Origin: a virus
Lineage: Duplodnaviria; Heunggongvirae; Uroviricota; Caudoviricetes
Strand: one strand, 5' to 3'
Virus record (IMG/VR): IMGVR_UViG_2695420471_000009
Length of the DNA: 13,451 bases
The translations under genes and the position numbers were made by a program. Within the stretch, counting starts at the first letter, position 1. Each line of letters begins with the position of its first letter. The notes under the pieces are model-generated. The model was not told where the DNA came from. It searched no databases and saw nothing but the letters and a program-made list of their open reading frames with translations. This document shows positions 3,319 to 13,030 of this stretch, one piece after another.

Positions 3319-3330
3319 NTGGATTTGCCC

Positions 3331-4236
3331 CTATATTTCCAGACATCTGTTATCACTTAACCCATTACAAGCCCGCTGCCGCAGATATTCCCGTGGCGAG
3401 CGATAACCCAGCGCACTATGCGGATGCCATTCGTTATAATGCTCGAACGCCTCTGCAAGGTTCTTTGCTGCCGTTAACCCGTCTGGTTTGGGCATGATAC
3501 TGATGTAGTCACGCTTTATCGTTTTCACGAAGCTCTCTGCTATTCCGTTACTCTCCGGACTCCGCACCGCCGTGTTCTTCGGTTCAAGTCCCAACATCCG
3601 GGCGAACTGGCGTGTTTCATTAGCCCGGTAGCATGAACCATTATCCGTCAGCCACTCCACTGGAGACGACGGAAGATCGTTGCCGAAGCGGCGTTCCACC
3701 GCTCCCAGCATGACGTCCTGTACTGTTTCACTGTTGAAGCCGCCGGTAGTCACCGCCCAGTGCAGTGCCTCACGATCACAGCAGTCCAGCGCGAACGTGA
3801 CACGCAGTCTCTCTCCGTTATCACAGCAGAACTCGAACCCGTCAGAGCACCATCGCTGATTGCTTTCTTTCACGGCCACTCTGCCTGTATGTGCCCGTTT
3901 CGATGGCGGTACAGCAGGTTTTCGCTCAAGCAACAGCGCATTCTGGCGCATGATCCGGTAAACACGTTTGGCATTGATCGCAGGCATACCATCAAGTTCT
4001 GCCTGTCTGCGAAGCAGCGCCCATACCCGACGATAACCATACGTGGGCAGCTCTCCGATAACATGGTGTATACGGAGAAGCACATCCGTATCATCAGTGT
4101 GACGACTGCGGCGGCCATCCATCCAGTCATCGGTTCGTCTGAGAATGACGTGCAACTGCGCACGCGACACCCGGAGACAACGGCTGACTAAGCTTACTCC
4201 CCATCCCCGGGCAATAAGGGCGCGTGCGCTATCCAC
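3331..4236 (-). CDS. insD: IS2 transposase OrfB (InsD), DDE catalytic domain
   Basis: 301-codon frame with GTG start, overlapping insC in the -1 frame. Sequence is typical of IS3-family OrfB. Confidence 0.85.
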
Positions 4237-4559
4237 TTTTTTGCCCGTCCATATTCAACGGCTTCTTTGAGGAGTTCATTTTCCATCGTTTTCTTGCCGA
4301 GCAGGCGCTGGAGTTCTTTAATCTGCTTCATGGCGGCAGCAAGTTCAGAGGCAGGAACAACCTGTTCTCCGGCGGCGACAGCAGTAAGACTTCCTTCCTG
4401 GTATTGCTTACGCCAGAGAAATAACTGGCTGGCTGCTACACCATGTTGCCGGGCAACGAGGGAGACCGTCATCCCCGGTTCAAAGCTCTGCTGAACAATT
4501 GCGATCTTTTCCTGTGTGGTACGCCGTCTGCGTTTCTCCGGCCCTAAGACATCAATCAT
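4194..4559 (-). CDS. insC: IS2 OrfA (InsC), HTH DNA-binding/regulatory protein
   Basis: 121 aa starting [18 protein letters not shown] at the ATG at 4559 on the minus strand (track ORF extends upstream to 4604). Helix-turn-helix and leucine-zipper-like segment. Confidence 0.85.
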
Positions 4560-4770
4560 CTGTACTCCAATGACTAGTCTAAAAACTAGTATTAAGACTA
4601 TCACTTATTTAAGTGATACTGGTTGTCTGGAGATTCAGGGGGCCAGTCTACGGACATTTTCTGCCTGTGGACCAGGAAAGTGCACGGGTGCTTTCCACTC
4701 CCATGAAGCCCGGCAATCCGCGCAGATACAGTAATAAACGAACTGACAGCAGTAAGATGGAGCGTTTCTT

Positions 4771-5028
4771 TTGAACAACCAGACAATGACTTTTACCCCT
4801 GAACAATTGCGTAAACACGCGCAGGAAATGCTGCGTCATGCTGAACAACTCGAAAAAACGGGCATAACAAAAGACGCTATCCGTAAAGATATGGTACCCG
4901 CGCTTCGGGAACTGATGCAGGCGAAGCATCGCGCACAGAAAGCAGTAGATGAGCTGGTGGACTGTGTGGCAGAGCTGGAAACCAGAGTCGGAAAGTTTGA
5001 AAAACTGGTGCAGGAGGTGCTGCGCTGA
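4771..5028 (+). CDS. Small nin-region protein (85 aa), same paralog family as 415..759
   Basis: N-terminus MTFTPEQLRKHAQE parallels [15 protein letters not shown] of ORF 415..759. Stop overlaps the rusA copy 2 start (TGATG). An alternative start is the ATG at 4786. Confidence 0.5.
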   Translation: MNNQTMTFTPEQLRKHAQEMLRHAEQLEKTGITKDAIRKDMVPALRELMQAKHRAQKAVDELVDCVAELETRVGKFEKLVQEVLR

Positions 5029-5402: not shown

Positions 5403-6218
5403 AACTGGAAGATTTACCGAAATACTACTCCCCAAAATCCCCTTGCCTGACCGATGCATCGGCCTCAACGTCAAAAGATGCGCTGAGTATCACTGATGTG
5501 ATGGCCGCGCAGGGCATGACACAGAATCGGGCTGAGATGGGGGTTTCTGCGTTCCTTGGGAAAATGGGCATTAGTATGAATGACAGAGAGCGGGCAACAG
5601 AATTGCTGACAGAATATGCACTCAGTCGGTGTGATCGCGTGGCGGCGTTAAGAAAACTCCCGGCAGAAATAAAACCGGCAGTGATGCGTATTATGGCTTC
5701 GTATGCGTTTGAAGATTATGCCCGTAGCGCGGCGAGCAAAAAACAGTGCCCCTGCTGTCACGGAAAAAAATTTATTGAAAGCGAGGTTTTTACAAACAAG
5801 ATCCAGTATCCGGATGGTAAGCCGCCGGTATGGGCAAAGTGTACGAAAGGTGTGTATCCGTCTTACTGGGAAGAATGGAAAAAAGTCAGGGAGGTGGTAA
5901 AAGTTGCCTGTCCGGAGTGTGGCGGAAAGGGTGAGGTTTCCACCGCCTGTAAGGATTGCCGTGGGCGTGGTGTCGCCATTCATCGTGAAGAGTCGGTAAA
6001 ACGTGGTATGCCTGTTATCAGAGACTGCCAGCGTTGTGGTGGTCGTGGCTATGAAAGACTACCATCAACGGAGGCATTTAATGCTATATGCGAGGTGACA
6101 AACCAGATAACACGCGCGTCATGGGAAAAAACAGTTAAGAAATTCTATGATGCGCTGGTGACTCGGTTTGATATTGAAGAAGCATGGGCTGAGCGGCAGT
6201 TAAAAAAGGTAACTAGGT
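5399..6218 (+). CDS. Q-like late antiterminator candidate (copy 2); 3' end runs into an N junction
   Basis: Same protein as 6526..7347 with several substitutions. At N 6219 the frame continues into rusA internal sequence, which creates the 376-aa track ORF. This is a join artefact or recombination point, not a natural fusion. Confidence 0.55.
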
Positions 6219-6219
6219 N

Positions 6220-6529
6220 CACATATTTTGTATCAAAAGCCGGTGAGCGTTATCGCCGGGATGTGGCGCTTATTGTCCGTCAGCAGCGACTGAAATTAAG
6301 CCTGTCCGGAAGACTGGCGATAAAGATTATTGCAGAGCCACCGGATAAGCGCCGTCGTGACCTGGACAATATCCTGAAAGCACCACTGGATGCACTGACA
6401 CATGCGGGAGTGTTAATGGACGATGAGCAGTTTGATGAAATCAATATCGTTCGTGGTCAGCCAGTATCTGGTGGACGTCTGGGGGTGAAGATTTACCCCA
6501 TAATGCATGAAGAGCAGGTCAAAAAATGA
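6220..6529 (+). pseudogene. RusA 3' fragment (copy 3), beginning at the N junction
   Basis: Encodes RusA residues from TYFVSKAGERY to the C-terminus. No start codon or 5' part is present. Confidence 0.6.
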
Positions 6530-7347
6530 AACTGGAAGATTTACCGAAATACTACTCCCCAAAATCCCCTTGCCTGACCGATGCATCGGCCTCAACGTCA
6601 AAAGATGCGCTGAGTATCACTGATGTGATGGCCGCGCAGGGCATGACACAGAATCGGGCTGAGATGGGGTTTTCTGCGTTCCTGGGGAAAATGGGCATCA
6701 GTATGAATGACAGGGCGCGGGCAACAGAATTACTGGCAGATTATGCACTCAGTCGGTGCGATCGTGTGGCGGCGTTGAGAAAACTTCCGGCAGAAATAAA
6801 ACCGGTAGTGATGCGCATTATGGCTTCGTACGCTTTTGAGGATTATGCCCGCAGCGCAGCGAGTAAAAAGCAGTGCCCTTGTTGCTATGGGGAAAAATTT
6901 ATTGAAAGCGTAGTTTTTACAAACAAGGTCCAGTATCCGGATGGTAAGCCGCCGGTATGGGCAAAGTGTACGAAAGGTGTGTATCCGTCTTACTGGGAAG
7001 AATGGAAAAAAGTCAGGGAGGTGGTAAAAGTTGCCTGTCCGGAGTGTGGCGGAAAGGGTGAGGTTTCCACCGCCTGTAAGGATTGCCGTGGGCGTGGTGT
7101 CGCCATTCATCGTGAAGAGTCGGTAAAACGTGGTATGCCTGTTATCAGAGACTGCCAGCGTTGTGGTGGTCGTGGCTATGAAAGACTACCATCAACGGAG
7201 GCATTTAATGCTATATGCGAGGTGACAAACCAGATAACACGCGCGTCATGGGAAAAAACAGTTAAGAAATTCTATGATGCGCTGGTGACTCGGTTTGATA
7301 TTGAAGAAGCATGGGCTGAGCGGCAGTTAAAAAAGGTAACTAGGTAA
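6526..7347 (+). CDS. Q-like late-gene antiterminator candidate (273 aa) with four DnaJ-type CxxCxGxG zinc-finger repeats
   Basis: Lies after rusA and immediately upstream of a lambda-type pR' promoter, pause element and tR' terminator. Repeats CPCCYGEK, CPECGGKG, CKDCRGRG, CQRCGGRG. Q assignment is by position and context, not by recognised homology. Confidence 0.65.
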   Translation: MKLEDLPKYYSPKSPCLTDASASTSKDALSITDVMAAQGMTQNRAEMGFSAFLGKMGISMNDRARATELLADYALSRCDRVAALRKLPAEIKPVVMRIMASYAFEDYARSAASKKQCPCCYGEKFIESVVFTNKVQYPDGKPPVWAKCTKGVYPSYWEEWKKVREVVKVACPECGGKGEVSTACKDCRGRGVAIHREESVKRGMPVIRDCQRCGGRGYERLPSTEAFNAICEVTNQITRASWEKTVKKFYDALVTRFDIEEAWAERQLKKVTR

Positions 7348-7352
7348 CAAGG

Positions 7353-7380
7353 TTGATTTTTCCGGAATCTGTGGTAAATT
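7353..7380 (+). promoter_or_regulatory. Late promoter pR'-like (TTGATT, 16-nt spacer, TAAATT) with downstream AACGAT pause element at 7387-7392
   Basis: Resembles lambda pR', which has a GGTAAATT -10 region and an AACGAT sigma70-dependent pause element in the initial transcribed region. Lies 6 nt after the Q-like stop. Confidence 0.6.
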
Positions 7381-7386
7381 CGTCAT

Positions 7387-7452
7387 AACGATGGGCGTTT
7401 TATGCCTGACGTTAGAAGAGTTTCTACAACCCGCCGCCGAGCGGGTTTTTTA
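7387..7452 (+). ncRNA. Short pR'-to-tR' terminated transcript (lambda 6S-like / StxS-like candidate)
   Basis: Inferred from promoter and terminator positions only. The start coordinate is a guess. Confidence 0.35.
7429..7452 (+). terminator. tR'-like intrinsic terminator
   Basis: Stem CCCGC / GCGGG with loop CGCCGA, followed by TTTTTTAT. Confidence 0.65.
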
Positions 7453-7571
7453 TGACTGAAATCGCGTCAGTACAGTAAACGCGCTGGTGGCGGTGAATAC
7501 CTGTCTTTCAGCTTGCTGGCTTTTTCGACAAGAGTTATTGGTGTGTCACGTTAACCGGAAAAGGAAAAGAC

Positions 7572-9282: not shown

Positions 9283-9308
9283 GGCTCGCTTTTGCGGGCC
9301 TTTTTTTT
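9283..9308 (+). terminator. Intrinsic terminator after the tRNA triplet
   Basis: Stem GGCTCGC / GCGGGCC (one G-U pair) with loop TTTT, followed by eight T. Confidence 0.6.
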
Positions 9309-9314
9309 AAATGT

Positions 9315-9527
9315 CTCACAATTCAGACGGTTGACAGTTGTCTGTTTTGCGGGGAGTTTGTTAAAAGAAACTGGCATGGTGAATCCCCCTGTGCGGAGGG
9401 GCAATCAGCGAGTAGGTATATGGGATAATCGCGGATTCAGGTGCTGGTACTGAATTCACCGGGAGGCACCCGGCATCATGCAATGGCACATAGCGCCACT
9501 CTCCAGCCCTCTCCGGAGGGGCTTTTC
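9315..9527 (+). repeat. Conserved ~215-bp GC-rich structured element downstream of tRNAs (copy A)
   Basis: Three copies in the window, with TTGACA near the 5' end and a GC hairpin plus T-rich tail at the 3' end. Copy A has a weaker 3' hairpin and is followed by the N junction at 9546. Confidence 0.5.
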
Positions 9528-9546
9528 TGTGCCGGATACATCACAG

Positions 9547-9607
9547 TTTCTGGAANCGGTTTGATATTGAAGAAGCATGGGCTGAGCGGCAGTTAAAAAA
9601 GGTAACT
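9547..9607 (+). pseudogene. 3' fragment of a third-allele Q-like gene, beginning at the N junction
   Basis: Encodes ...FDIEEAWAERQLKKVTR. A 7-bp deletion relative to 7341-7350 removes the TAA stop. Confidence 0.5.
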
Positions 9608-9610
9608 AGG

Positions 9611-9638
9611 TTGATTTTTCCGGAATCTGTGGTAAATT
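9611..9638 (+). promoter_or_regulatory. pR'-like late promoter (second copy), pause element variant AACTAT
   Basis: TTGATT, 16-nt spacer, TAAATT. Pause hexamer at 9645-9650 reads AACTAT instead of AACGAT. Confidence 0.55.
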
Positions 9639-9686
9639 CGTCATAACTATGGGCGTTTTATGCCTGACGTTAGAAGAGTTTCTACA

Positions 9687-9710
9687 ACCCGCCGCCGAGC
9701 GGGTTTTTTA
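9687..9710 (+). terminator. tR'-like terminator (second copy)
   Basis: Same CCCGC / GCGGG hairpin and T6 tract as at 7429. Confidence 0.6.
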
Positions 9711-9748
9711 TTGCGGAATTAATTACGGACCGTTATTATTCTGCTCCC

Positions 9749-9824
9749 GGCCCTTTAGCTCAGTGGTGAGAGCGAGCGACTCATAATCGCCAGGTCGCTG
9801 GTTCAAATCCAGCAAGGGCCACCA
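9749..9824 (+). tRNA. ileZ: tRNA with CAU anticodon (ileZ-like), copy 2
   Basis: Identical to 9019..9094. Here it sits directly after tR' with no 65-aa ORF or methyltransferase in between, as in Stx-type phages. Confidence 0.8.
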
Positions 9825-9831
9825 TCACAAA

Positions 9832-9911
9832 CCGCCATTAGCTTATCAGGAAGAGCAGACGACACGATAACAGGGTTGTTGGTGCGGGGGCGGGTCCCCG
9901 ATGGCGGTCCA
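9832..9911 (+). pseudogene. Degenerate argN-like tRNA (anticodon arm replaced, non-canonical T-loop)
   Basis: Acceptor and D-arm match tRNA-Arg(UCG), but the region between D-arm and T-stem is unrelated and the T-loop lacks TTCRA. Confidence 0.5.
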
Positions 9912-9924
9912 TTATCGGTATTCA

Positions 9925-10001
9925 GCGTTGTTAGCTCAGCCGGACAGAGCAATTGCCTTCTAAGCAATCGGTCACTGGTTCGAATCCAGTACAGCGCGCC
10001 A
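9925..10001 (+). tRNA. argO: tRNA-Arg (anticodon UCU), argO-like, variant with G-U pair in acceptor stem
   Basis: Same as 9192..9268 except the 3' acceptor strand reads ACAGCGC (A to G change gives a T-G wobble). Confidence 0.7.
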
Positions 10002-10111
10002 TATTCATTCTTCCAGATTCCTTCCGGCAGAGCCTTATACTGAAATATACCTGGCTCAGGATATTGTTGAAAATATTTTATGTTTGTCAAAAATAAAAGT
10101 TCTGTTAAGTA

Positions 10112-10465
10112 TTGATTGAGTGTTTGTTATACGGTCTAATGGTTTTTTCAGCATTAAATATTTATCATTCATATGGTGTGGGTAGAGTGAATATTGATGA
10201 GGCGTCGGGGTGTTTCATCCTTAGGCAGCGTATTGATATAGTCAATGCAGCACGAGCAAAGGCCTTCAGCCGTTTGACAGTTTTGTTCTGTACTCCTGAT
10301 CGTCTTTCGGGAAGAGACGTTATTATTCTGAATAGTGATGCTATACAGAGGGTTTGCGATGAGTTCATGGTTGCTAATTCAGAATTATTTGCTCTTGTTC
10401 AGGAGTACAACAGAATAGCCAGGACCTGTGGTATGGATGAACTTCGGATTACTCATCTGGGGTAG
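10112..10465 (+). CDS. Hypothetical protein in the variable insert downstream of argO (start uncertain)
   Basis: Track ORF starts at TTG; first ATG is 10139 with no clear SD. Lies in a unique 650-bp segment absent from the other two tRNA-downstream copies. No family recognised. Confidence 0.3.
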   Translation: MIECLLYGLMVFSALNIYHSYGVGRVNIDEASGCFILRQRIDIVNAARAKAFSRLTVLFCTPDRLSGRDVIILNSDAIQRVCDEFMVANSELFALVQEYNRIARTCGMDELRITHLG

Positions 10466-10668
10466 ATACATATCTGGATTATCACCTGTTACGGTAAAAA
10501 GTGATTGCTTACTGTTTTTGTGAATGGCATTGCAGCAGCCGGATAATGTCAGTGCTGGCTGACGGTGTGCTGGTGGCGGGTGTGGTGGTTGTTGCTTTCC
10601 CGTTGCTGAAAAAGAAAACGCCAGACTGTTAGCCGGGTATCAGTTAGCGGGAGAAATTTTTAAATACT

Positions 10669-10893
10669 TCACAATTCAGGCGGTTGACTGTTGTCTGGTT
10701 TGCGGGGAGTTTGTTAAAAGAAACTGGCATGGTGAATCCCCCTGTGCGGAGGGGCAATCAGCGAGTAGGTATATGGGATAATCGCGGATTCAGGTGCTGG
10801 TACTGAATTCACCGGGAGGCACCCGGCACCATGCAATGGCACATAGCGCCACTCTCCAGCCCCTCTCCGGAGGGGCTGTTTATATTGATTTTG
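10669..10893 (+). repeat. Conserved GC-rich structured element downstream of tRNAs (copy B, divergent)
   Basis: Homologous to 9315..9527 and 12450..12675 with scattered substitutions (TTGACT instead of TTGACA). Ends with a perfect 8-bp hairpin and T-rich tail. Confidence 0.5.
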
Positions 10894-10934
10894 TCAGATG
10901 TGAGTAAACTCCTTATGGACTAAAACAACAAAGT

Positions 10935-10944
10935 NNNNNNNNNN
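10935..10944. other. Assembly gap (10 N)
   Basis: Run of N. Both flanks end inside inverted-repeat hairpins. Confidence 0.95.
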
Positions 10945-12449: not shown

Positions 12450-12675
12450 CTCACAATTCAGACGGTTGACAGTTGTCTGTTTTGCGGGGAGTTTGTTAAA
12501 AGAAACTGGCATGGTGAATCCCCCTGTGCGGAGGGGCAATCAGCGAGTAGGTATATGGGATAATCGCGGATTCAGGTGCTGGTACTGAATTCACCGGGAG
12601 GCACCCGGCACCATGCAATGGCACATAGCGCCACTCTCCAGCCCCTCTCCGGAGGGGCTGTTTATATTGATTTTG
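12450..12675 (+). repeat. Conserved GC-rich structured element downstream of tRNAs (copy C)
   Basis: TTGACA at 12466; 3' hairpin AGCCCCTC TCCG GAGGGGCT at 12640..12659 followed by a T-rich tail. Confidence 0.5.
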
Positions 12676-12691: not shown

Positions 12692-12725
12692 TCCTTATGG
12701 ACTTTGTTGTTTTAGTCCATAAGGA
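12692..12725. repeat. Perfect 11-bp inverted repeat (TCCTTATGGAC / GTCCATAAGGA) with 12-nt loop
   Basis: Seen directly. Marks the boundary between the GC-rich element and the AT-rich island. Confidence 0.5.
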
Positions 12726-13030
12726 CATATTTGCAGAGTGCAACGGTTATTAAAGCATTCATTCAATACGTTATCTGTATTTGTAGGGCATTCCTGGCTA
12801 TTTTTGATTGAATTCCAGAATGTTTTATTGAATGGTACTACGTTGTAAATGGTTACAGGTAGCACTTTGTTATTGAGCATGATGCCTGTGTGAGTCAGTG
12901 TAAATATACTTTCAGGAGGTAAGAAAGCATCCGATTGATACCAGATTATTAATTTTATTTTACTCCATATGACTGAAAAAGATATTCCGCATGATGGCTG
13001 GATAACTGTATCAATCACAATCCACTTCAT
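12695..13030 (-). CDS. Hypothetical 111-aa protein on the reverse strand within an AT-rich island
   Basis: ATG at 13030 preceded by AAGGAA SD (5-nt spacer) and a TTTACA / TATACT promoter-like pair. A 111-codon open frame is unlikely by chance in DNA this AT-rich. No family recognised. Confidence 0.45.

Follow-up and report, generated by a model that had tools for sequence, protein, structure and literature searches.

The interval between the late antiterminator gene Q and the lysis genes of lambdoid phages is a known cargo site for morons, whose classic layout is a gene with its own terminator. It is the stx site of 933W-type Shiga-toxin phages, and it also corresponds to the cspB/cspF region in the K-12 prophage Qin and to the place of nmpC in DLP12. 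The window analysed here, 13,451 nucleotides (nt) of a Caudoviricetes virus (IMG/VR record IMGVR_UViG_2695420471_000009), carries at such a position, directly after a tRNA-Arg gene (argO), an insert of about 650 base pairs (bp; 10002-10668) with a small gene that we call orf92. The locus resembles morons of the Q-to-lysis interval in lying after Q, the late promoter PR' and the ileZ-argN-argO tRNAs and before the holin gene, in being present or absent among otherwise homologous prophages, in having a base composition unlike its flanks, and in that relatives of orf92 have a terminator of their own. It differs from them in that its cargo is neither a toxin nor a known fitness factor, in that its promoter-like matches stay at the level of shuffled sequence, and in that the allele of the window has lost the terminator and two of three genes. 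We regard it as probable that the insert is the surviving part of a decayed moron-type cassette of lambda-like (Qin-type) Escherichia coli prophages, with orf92 as a real gene that would be co-transcribed with the late region. The identity and architecture of the insert are well supported, while its mode of action is put forward as a weak inference. The insert is an ordinary accessory feature and no new kind of element, and it leaves the organisation of lambdoid phage genomes unchallenged.

ARAGORN called eight tRNAs in three groups in the window, and a three-way alignment of the regions around them (copies 1, 2 and 3) delimits the insert. Downstream of argO, copies 1 and 3 pass at once into an intrinsic terminator (9283-9300 plus T8) and then into an element shared by all copies, whereas in copy 2 about 655 unique bases, from 10002 to about 10656, follow argO, which ends at 10001; homology restarts at TTTTTAAAT..TCACAATTCAG (10657-10668). 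This agrees with a first-pass annotation of the window, made from the sequence alone, which had described an insert of about 650 bp in copy 2 and a direct passage to the terminator and the element in the other two. It had also been right in seeing an AT-rich beginning (26-33% guanine plus cytosine, GC, at 10007-10206) and a presence/absence cargo site right after the phage tRNAs: the backbone of Q, PR', tRNAs and the small RNA (sRNA) gene STnc100 is found with the insert at locus L001 and 78 other loci, and without it in window copies 1 and 3 and at locus L102. The GC content is 26-33% in the leader of the insert and 39-47% in orf92, as compared to 50-59% in the tRNA region and 47-55% in STnc100 and its flanks. 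Of 5,426 complete E. coli genomes, about 1,180 (~22%) carry the insert at about 99% identity (mostly at least 99%), among them ST131 and the enteroaggregative strain EAEC 042; examples of carriers are E. coli 042 (NC_017626.1, 2255719-2257040) and EC958 (NZ_HG941718.1, 2165386-2166707). The order in complete genomes is Q - PR'/tR' - ileZ - psi-argN (a degenerate argN) - argO - insert - STnc100 - IraM-like gene (minus strand) - DUF1737 gene - holin, and 78 independent loci have the succession from the 3' end of Q through ileZ, psi-argN, argO, leader, orf92, tciB and STnc100 to iraM.

The gene orf92 lies on the plus strand at 10187-10465, encodes 92 amino acids (aa) from a GTG start at 10187 to a stop codon at 10463-10465, and belongs to the family phrog_2873. 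An open reading frame (ORF) at 10112/10139-10465 had been proposed before; the open frame exists, but its start is GTG 10187 and the extensions to 108 or 117 aa are unconserved, as are the upstream 16-25 codons at large, and one allele has a 1-nt deletion at 10147. The closest relatives start at M/V-NIDE, which equals GTG 10187, and more distant ones 3-4 residues further upstream, with a clear Shine-Dalgarno sequence 5-7 nt before the start (AGGAGTAGA-GTG, AAGGGATAAT-ATG, AAAGGATACTCC-ATG). Nor is the ORF unrecorded. With the 108-aa version as query it matches phrog_2873 over the full length (residues 1-108 of 108, E 2.8e-70, 234 bits), a family of phage and prophage proteins with no function attached (phrog_4827 being distant), whose PHROG model uses the 108-aa gene call whereas the comparative data favour 92 aa. 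RefSeq moreover holds a relative from E. coli SA31-1 (locus L100) as a 92-aa hypothetical protein, WP_001017777.1, annotated by the Prokaryotic Genome Annotation Pipeline (PGAP).

The family is small and its members are alike in length. Homologues comprise near-identical E. coli clusters and remoter ones at 54-63% identity; an exhaustive HMMER profile search of 1.8 billion representative proteins returned 20 family members only, none of them annotated, and a second, word-indexed search added members at 20-40% identity in Citrobacter, Morganella, Serratia and Xenorhabdus. When GTDB species representatives were scanned with an alignment of the family, no more than 3 loci emerged, and a search of viral contigs with P0028, P0029 and P0030 for further contexts found nothing. 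Full-length members mostly have 91-99 aa, with a few outliers of 106-110 aa, and both the length and the motifs ERA.AFS, TPDR, AN.EL and EYN are kept in relatives at 20-40% identity. Against two E. coli-type homologues the ratio of non-synonymous to synonymous substitution rates (dN/dS, Nei-Gojobori) is 0.25-0.27 at a saturating dS of ~1. In a comparison of 34 distinct alleles from 78 loci, which are related to one another so that P-values are indicative only, the density of variable sites is lowest in orf92, at 0.039, while the leader reaches 0.108 (P = 0.007) and tciB 0.106 (P = 0.013); orf92 also has no indels, and 6 synonymous and 5 non-synonymous changes (synonymous excess, P = 0.02). The concern that the ORF might not be kept open elsewhere is not borne out, the frame of orf92 being open and selected in other genomes. 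On the evidence of sequence comparison, orf92 is a genuine gene under purifying selection, because of its phrog_2873 match, the constant family length, the dN/dS value, the scarcity of single-nucleotide polymorphisms (SNPs) and the lack of indels, and the Shine-Dalgarno sequences of its relatives.

The right part of the insert holds what is left of two further genes. One ORF had been described in the insert; a second annotated ORF, not mentioned then, lies at 10501-10632 (plus strand), is damaged at its 5' end, encodes 43 aa and is DUF3927/TciB-like (Pfam PF13064, 95.6 bits vs. a cut-off of 25; phrog_1470 'TciB-like', E 7.8e-13; RefSeq WP_000562553.1). Where an intact TerB-domain ORF could have stood between orf92 and tciB, only 28 nt are left, from the tciA (TerB family) 3' end and the tciA/tciB junction (10473-10500, plus strand; 86% identity over 28 nt to phage JLK-2012). 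Aligned to JLK-2012, the 5' region of tciB shows gaps of 11, 4 and 5 nt, and via these indels its first hydrophobic segment (LAVVALLLFLVVMV) is replaced by IAYCFCEWHC; this ORF therefore does not encode the full-length TciB with two segments that is seen in JLK-2012 and at loci L008 and L009. From 10533 to 10843 the window is 93% identical to the 3' part of JLK-2012 tciB and the region downstream. JLK-2012 thus shares with the window the position of tciA-tciB after the phage tRNAs, and differs in being without orf92, whereas in the window tciA is deleted and tciB is without its first hydrophobic segment. The possibility, raised in the first-pass annotation, that the insert is a fragment of a known gene or a remnant of an insertion sequence (IS) is confirmed for its right quarter, which consists of tciA/tciB fragments, and contradicted as regards an IS remnant, since IS features are absent. 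The names 'Tci' (TerB 'tellurite resistance', DUF3927) are annotation labels, and a literature search found no paper testing the functions; searches on TciA/TciB, DUF3927, phrog_2873 and the RefSeq accessions yielded nothing relevant.

An intact cassette of orf92, tciA and tciB is present at loci L100, L008 and L009. Compared with L100, the terminator of orf92, the spacer and nearly all of tciA (~0.6 kb) are gone from the window, and the junction lies ~10 nt past the orf92 stop codon. The ancestral cassette would accordingly have read orf92 - terminator - tciA (TerB family) - tciB (DUF3927 membrane peptide). A deletion of ~0.6 kb would have taken the orf92 terminator and nearly all of tciA, and small indels would afterwards have wrecked the 5' end of tciB, with orf92 remaining intact and under purifying selection. 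The tciB ORF has a SNP density of 0.106, about that of the leader, with one nonsense allele and one 3-nt indel; a residual function is possible, as there is some synonymous excess (P = 0.03).

Relatives of orf92 are found in varied surroundings. A Morganella prophage has the order Q - methylase - orf92 relative - holin - lysozyme and a Serratia prophage Q - orf92 relative - two small ORFs - lysozyme, while in E. coli SA31-1, a metagenome contig and Citrobacter braakii the gene comes after a methylase or tRNA gene and before a TerB-family gene (phrog_632, 'tciA'), a DUF3927 gene ('tciB'), holin and endolysin. Prophages of E. coli, Citrobacter, Morganella and Serratia thus agree in placing the gene between Q and holin, with or without methylase or tRNAs. 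O157-type prophages have the homologue after an AraC-family gene and an IS3-family element, with STnc100-like repeats downstream of it. Departures from the Q-to-holin site are a plasmid-borne copy next to a fimbrial operon and one within a Mu-like prophage of Xenorhabdus. The plasmid-borne gene (5001-5276 in L092-L094) encodes a 91-aa member, P0036, of 33-34% identity, on an apparent plasmid with a Rep3 replicase and an integrase, where it adjoins a PapB-regulated chaperone-usher fimbrial operon, far from phage lysis genes. An intrinsic terminator stands 15-70 nt past the stop codon of the Morganella, Serratia and E. coli SA31-1 relatives; in the allele of the window this terminator is missing, and only a weak internal hairpin is seen at 10301-10319. 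Promoter-like matches at the window, Morganella, Serratia and L100 loci were not above those in shuffled sequence. Since the contexts vary while the Q-to-holin interval recurs, orf92 is a stand-alone unit with a strong preference for that interval, and a gene with its own terminator is what a classic moron looks like.

Expression of orf92 in the window probably depends on the late transcript. In alleles without the insert, the terminator after argO would end the tRNA transcript unless a Q-modified polymerase reads through. Because this terminator is absent here and no other one lies before orf92, orf92 and the tRNAs probably share the Q-antiterminated late transcript from PR', and the transcript would run on through the tciB remnant into STnc100 and its terminator. 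A promoter active in the lysogen is possible in the leader, though the promoter-like matches there lend it no support. Translation from a GTG codon with a weakened Shine-Dalgarno sequence would probably be modest.

The AT-rich leader itself (10002-10186, plus strand) is the most variable part of the insert (variable-site density 0.108), and homology to other orf92 loci begins only at 10110-10156. A terminator scan found none in it, its promoter-like sites, with scores of 9-10 of 12, do not exceed what shuffled sequence yields, and no Rfam family matches inside the insert at E up to 1. The 14 bases after argO (10002-10015) are 86% complementary to the Shine-Dalgarno/GTG region of orf92 (10180-10194); the pairing appears in both the minimum-free-energy and the centroid fold of the leader and might mask the start codon. 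The idea that the leader holds a structured RNA was rejected, its fold stability being about that of shuffled sequence (z-score -0.38), and two minus-strand ORFs (10165-10368 and 9803-10090) without family matches, the latter overlapping a tRNA, were treated as spurious.

The product, Orf92 (10.4 kDa, isoelectric point 5.7), has no transmembrane or hydrophobic segment and is predicted to be soluble. An AlphaFold2 model from a shallow alignment (predicted local distance difference test score, pLDDT, 84.6) places helices at residues 2-34 and 49-80 and, between them, a short turn with the conserved TPDR motif, so that the fold is predicted to be an antiparallel two-helix hairpin. Orf92 is acidic, would act in the cytoplasm and most likely binds another protein, by analogy with small helical-hairpin proteins, which often do; the TraM anti-activator and the T4 RIII antiholin are listed as the nearest known kind. 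Its action would probably be independent of TciA and TciB, because relatives occur without both. A more specific proposal, that Orf92 is a distant DNA-binding protein of the GapR/UPF0335 (DUF2312) kind, is very improbable in our judgement. Four GapR entries are the best sequence-profile matches in the PDB, over the N-terminal helix and the turn, yet their E-values of 0.045-0.26 are non-significant and hardly better with a deeper profile, the similarity, in sequence or fold, falls short of that expected of a relative, no member of the orf92 family matches any related Pfam model, and Orf92 is an acidic protein.

Other explanations of the locus attribute to orf92 a different partner or task. It might be one part of a three-component module with TciA (a TerB-domain stress/metal-binding protein) and TciB (a membrane peptide with two spans), and the copy in the window a non-functional orphan that has not yet decayed. 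The adjacency of orf92, tciA and tciB in three diverged loci speaks for such a module (protein identity to the window gene is ~63% at L100 and L008 and ~43% at L009), but tciA-tciB occurs without orf92 in phage JLK-2012, Morganella, Serratia, O157-type prophages and a plasmid have relatives of orf92 but no tciAB, in L100 a terminator stands between orf92 and tciA, and among alleles that have no tciA orf92 is still the best-conserved part of the block; we therefore hold the module to be unlikely, if worth keeping in mind. More doubtful still, and decidedly improbable, is that orf92 acts as a lysis-timing or other late-gene factor of the phage, and not as a gene of benefit to the lysogen. T4 RIII, a cytoplasmic helical antiholin of 82 aa, would be a model for it: Orf92 is likewise small, and predicted to be helical and soluble, and in Morganella and Serratia prophages its relative is the first or only protein gene between Q and holin. 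Against this, the searches turned up no lysis protein of similar sequence or specifically similar fold, in E. coli the tciAB, STnc100, iraM and DUF1737 genes separate orf92 from the holin gene, the copies on the plasmid and in the Mu-like prophage have no lysis cassette nearby, and the gene is nearly absent from sequenced viable phages.

Two further readings have very little to commend them. The ORF could be a chance open frame in non-coding filler, the insert being variable intergenic DNA, as its AT-rich surroundings, the lack of a ribosome-binding site at the starts 10112 and 10139, and the omission of orf92 by PGAP and by Rapid Annotation using Subsystem Technology (RAST) in most records might suggest. 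A dN/dS of 0.25 at saturating dS, the lengths and motifs kept by relatives at 20-40% identity, their clear Shine-Dalgarno sequences and the PGAP annotation of WP_001017777.1 tell against chance, which is excluded by the selection and family data and to which we give scarcely any credence. Equally far-fetched is an origin of the insert as a mobile element or IS remnant transposed into the site. Presence and absence with sharp borders, and IS near related loci (of the IS3 family by the O157-type homologue, IS66 in L001), would fit it, but neither terminal inverted repeats nor a target duplication exist at 10002/10668, no ORF of the insert resembles a transposase or integrase, and the right border is common to tciAB-bearing phages (93% identity to JLK-2012 from 10533 on). 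An IS or transposon origin was rejected for want of terminal repeats, target duplication and transposase, and the shared right border points to an exchange of modules by recombination and deletion.

The reading of the insert as the remainder of a decayed cassette with a working gene nonetheless has several observations to contend with. PGAP leaves orf92 unannotated in 26 of 26 listed records with the ~99% allele, annotating there only the DUF3927 ORF, and RAST also missed it in phage mEp460_ev081, the only one of 50,697 sequenced phage records that carries the gene. In view of this rarity, orf92 could be baggage that decaying prophages carry along, with no working function in the phage; it resides mainly in resident prophages, many of them decayed (in L001, e.g., an IS66 element lies inside the endolysin gene). 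The Shine-Dalgarno sequence of the window is degenerate (GGGTAGA vs. AGGAGTAGA in relatives, at the same spacing) and the start codon is GTG. The signal of selection among close alleles is modest, with 11 variable sites, P = 0.02 and alleles that are not independent. The homology and structure searches suggested in the first-pass annotation gave a family, phrog_2873, and a predicted two-helix fold, while Pfam and NCBIfam had no match for orf92 and structure and profile searches yielded no functional homologue.

The neighbourhood of the insert in the window calls for some caution, as large blocks are present 2-3 times; the comparison had been framed in tRNA triplets. Single N characters stand at 3319, 6219 and 9556, and a run of ten at 10935-10944. 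The 3' end of the Q gene recurs as an exact 55-nt repeat at 6164-6218, against the N at 6219, and at 9557-9611, against the N at 9556, the pattern expected when assembly-graph contigs with k-mer overlaps are strung together. The joins at 9556 and 10935-10944 were searched in the 5,426 complete E. coli genomes. None covers the 10-N join in one place, 16 genomes that seemed to span the join at 9556 do so in two permuted pieces, the true order being Q - tRNAs - element, and no genome is colinear across either join. Given the Ns, the 55-nt overlaps and the lack of a colinear genome, the three copies are not a tandem array, and the tandem arrangement is an artefact of assembly: a scaffolder has joined late regions from different lambdoid prophages, or alternative paths of the assembly, and the window is a chimeric string of prophage late regions. 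The segment that bears the insert (9557-10934) is authentic, with a match over at least 80% of its length in 1,143 complete genomes, the best at 99.4-99.6% identity. Pipelines that scan such records should be aware that repeated prophage regions in N-joined scaffolds mimic tandem arrays. Complete genomes (compare L001, 7322-7334) and copy 3 have a hairpin that reads CCTTATGGACT-TTGTTGTTTT-AGTCCATAAGG, situated past the 3' end of the convergent iraM-like gene and beside the STnc100 terminator. The last 13 bases before the 10-N gap (10922-10934, AAAACAACAAAGT) are its loop in reverse complement, a 13-base inversion that arose as a fold-back artefact where a contig ends. Elsewhere in the window, two overlapping minus-strand ORFs (3331-4236, 301 aa, and 4194-4604, 136 aa) recall an IS3-family transposase pair in size and layout only, and a similar pair stands beside the orf92 homologue of L002.

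To the left of the insert, the segment begins directly after N 9556 with the 3' end of the late antiterminator gene Q (9557-9611, plus strand), an exact 55-nt repeat of 6164-6218 and of 7291-7345, the end of a 273-aa Q ORF (6526-7347); in L001 the equivalent bases end a gene annotated 'antitermination protein'. The interval between Q and the tRNAs contains an intrinsic terminator found by the terminator scan (9686-9712, plus strand; AACCCGCCGCCGAGCGGGTT then TTTTATT), which we assume to be tR' from its position in lambdoid phages. A duplicated stretch 3' of Q (9613-9712 and 7342-7460) ends in an intrinsic terminator (9686-9705) and by position resembles a PR'-tR' late leader. In the insert-bearing prophage the tRNAs come directly after this stretch, whereas in copies 1 and 3 a gene for a 352-aa DNA methyltransferase lies between. 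Of the tRNA triplet reported for copy 2, the gene with a CAT anticodon (ileZ type; 9749-9824, plus strand; ARAGORN, Rfam tRNA 72.5 bits, RefSeq tRNA-Ile in L001) and the tRNA-Arg (TCT) gene of the argO type that forms the left border of the insert (9925-10001, plus strand; ARAGORN, Rfam 68 bits) are functional; the middle one is not, which leaves two functional tRNAs only. This argN (Arg-TCG; 9825-9924, plus strand) is a pseudo-tRNA uncalled by ARAGORN and Rfam, and in alignment to copy 1 both ends of its acceptor stem are kept and its anticodon region and core are scrambled. The degenerate argN accompanies the insert in most of the fetched loci, and a few methylase-bearing backbones have the insert without a match to it and may have an intact argN.

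To the right, the conserved post-tRNA element is indeed shared by all copies but is not new, being the sRNA gene STnc100 (10698-10887, plus strand; Rfam RF02076, 132.4 bits vs. a gathering score of 47, full model 1-206), whose terminator was located by the scan at 10857-10878. Further copies lie at 9345-9534 and 12480-12669, and the three score 123.6-133.6 bits over model positions 1-206. According to a 2026 preprint (bioRxiv 10.64898/2026.05.13.724894), STnc100 is an sRNA encoded by prophages that is related to PasD and occurs commonly in Stx-type prophage regions. An O157-type prophage (L101, NZ_AP027246.1) has five STnc100-like segments of 69-85% identity (2129-2368, 4065-4330, 4361-4600, 4631-4860 and 4891-4985), four of them head to tail just downstream of the orf92 homologue; they look like a tandem array of sRNA genes and may match the PasD/STnc100 variants of the same study. 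In complete genomes the STnc100 copy after the insert has an IraM-like gene immediately downstream; in the window such a gene is the 111-aa ORF at 12695-13030 (minus strand; NCBIfam NF007393 'anti-adapter protein IraM', 162 bits vs. a cut-off of 121; phrog_4407). A homologue of an RpoS-stabilising anti-adaptor is thus prophage cargo beside an sRNA.

The lambdoid cargo site, the family phrog_2873 and the sRNA STnc100 were already known; the corrected gene model, the evidence of selection, the reconstruction of cassette decay and the recognition of a systematic annotation gap are new, and their practical value is modest. A small gene under selection, present in ~22% of complete E. coli genomes, is skipped by RefSeq in the sampled carriers of this allele, and gene catalogues and pangenome studies therefore undercount it. 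A role of orf92 in host physiology is plausible, because the gene occupies an stx-type site of virulence cargo beside STnc100 and an IraM-like gene that stabilises RpoS. A bolder and rather speculative proposal is that the orf92 family is a conserved, largely unannotated 'first late gene' across lambda-like prophages of Enterobacterales, whose two-helix product binds and modulates a specific host or phage protein. If this were true, factors of lysis timing, stress response or superinfection would be candidate targets, and the family would represent a new functional class of small phage regulator.

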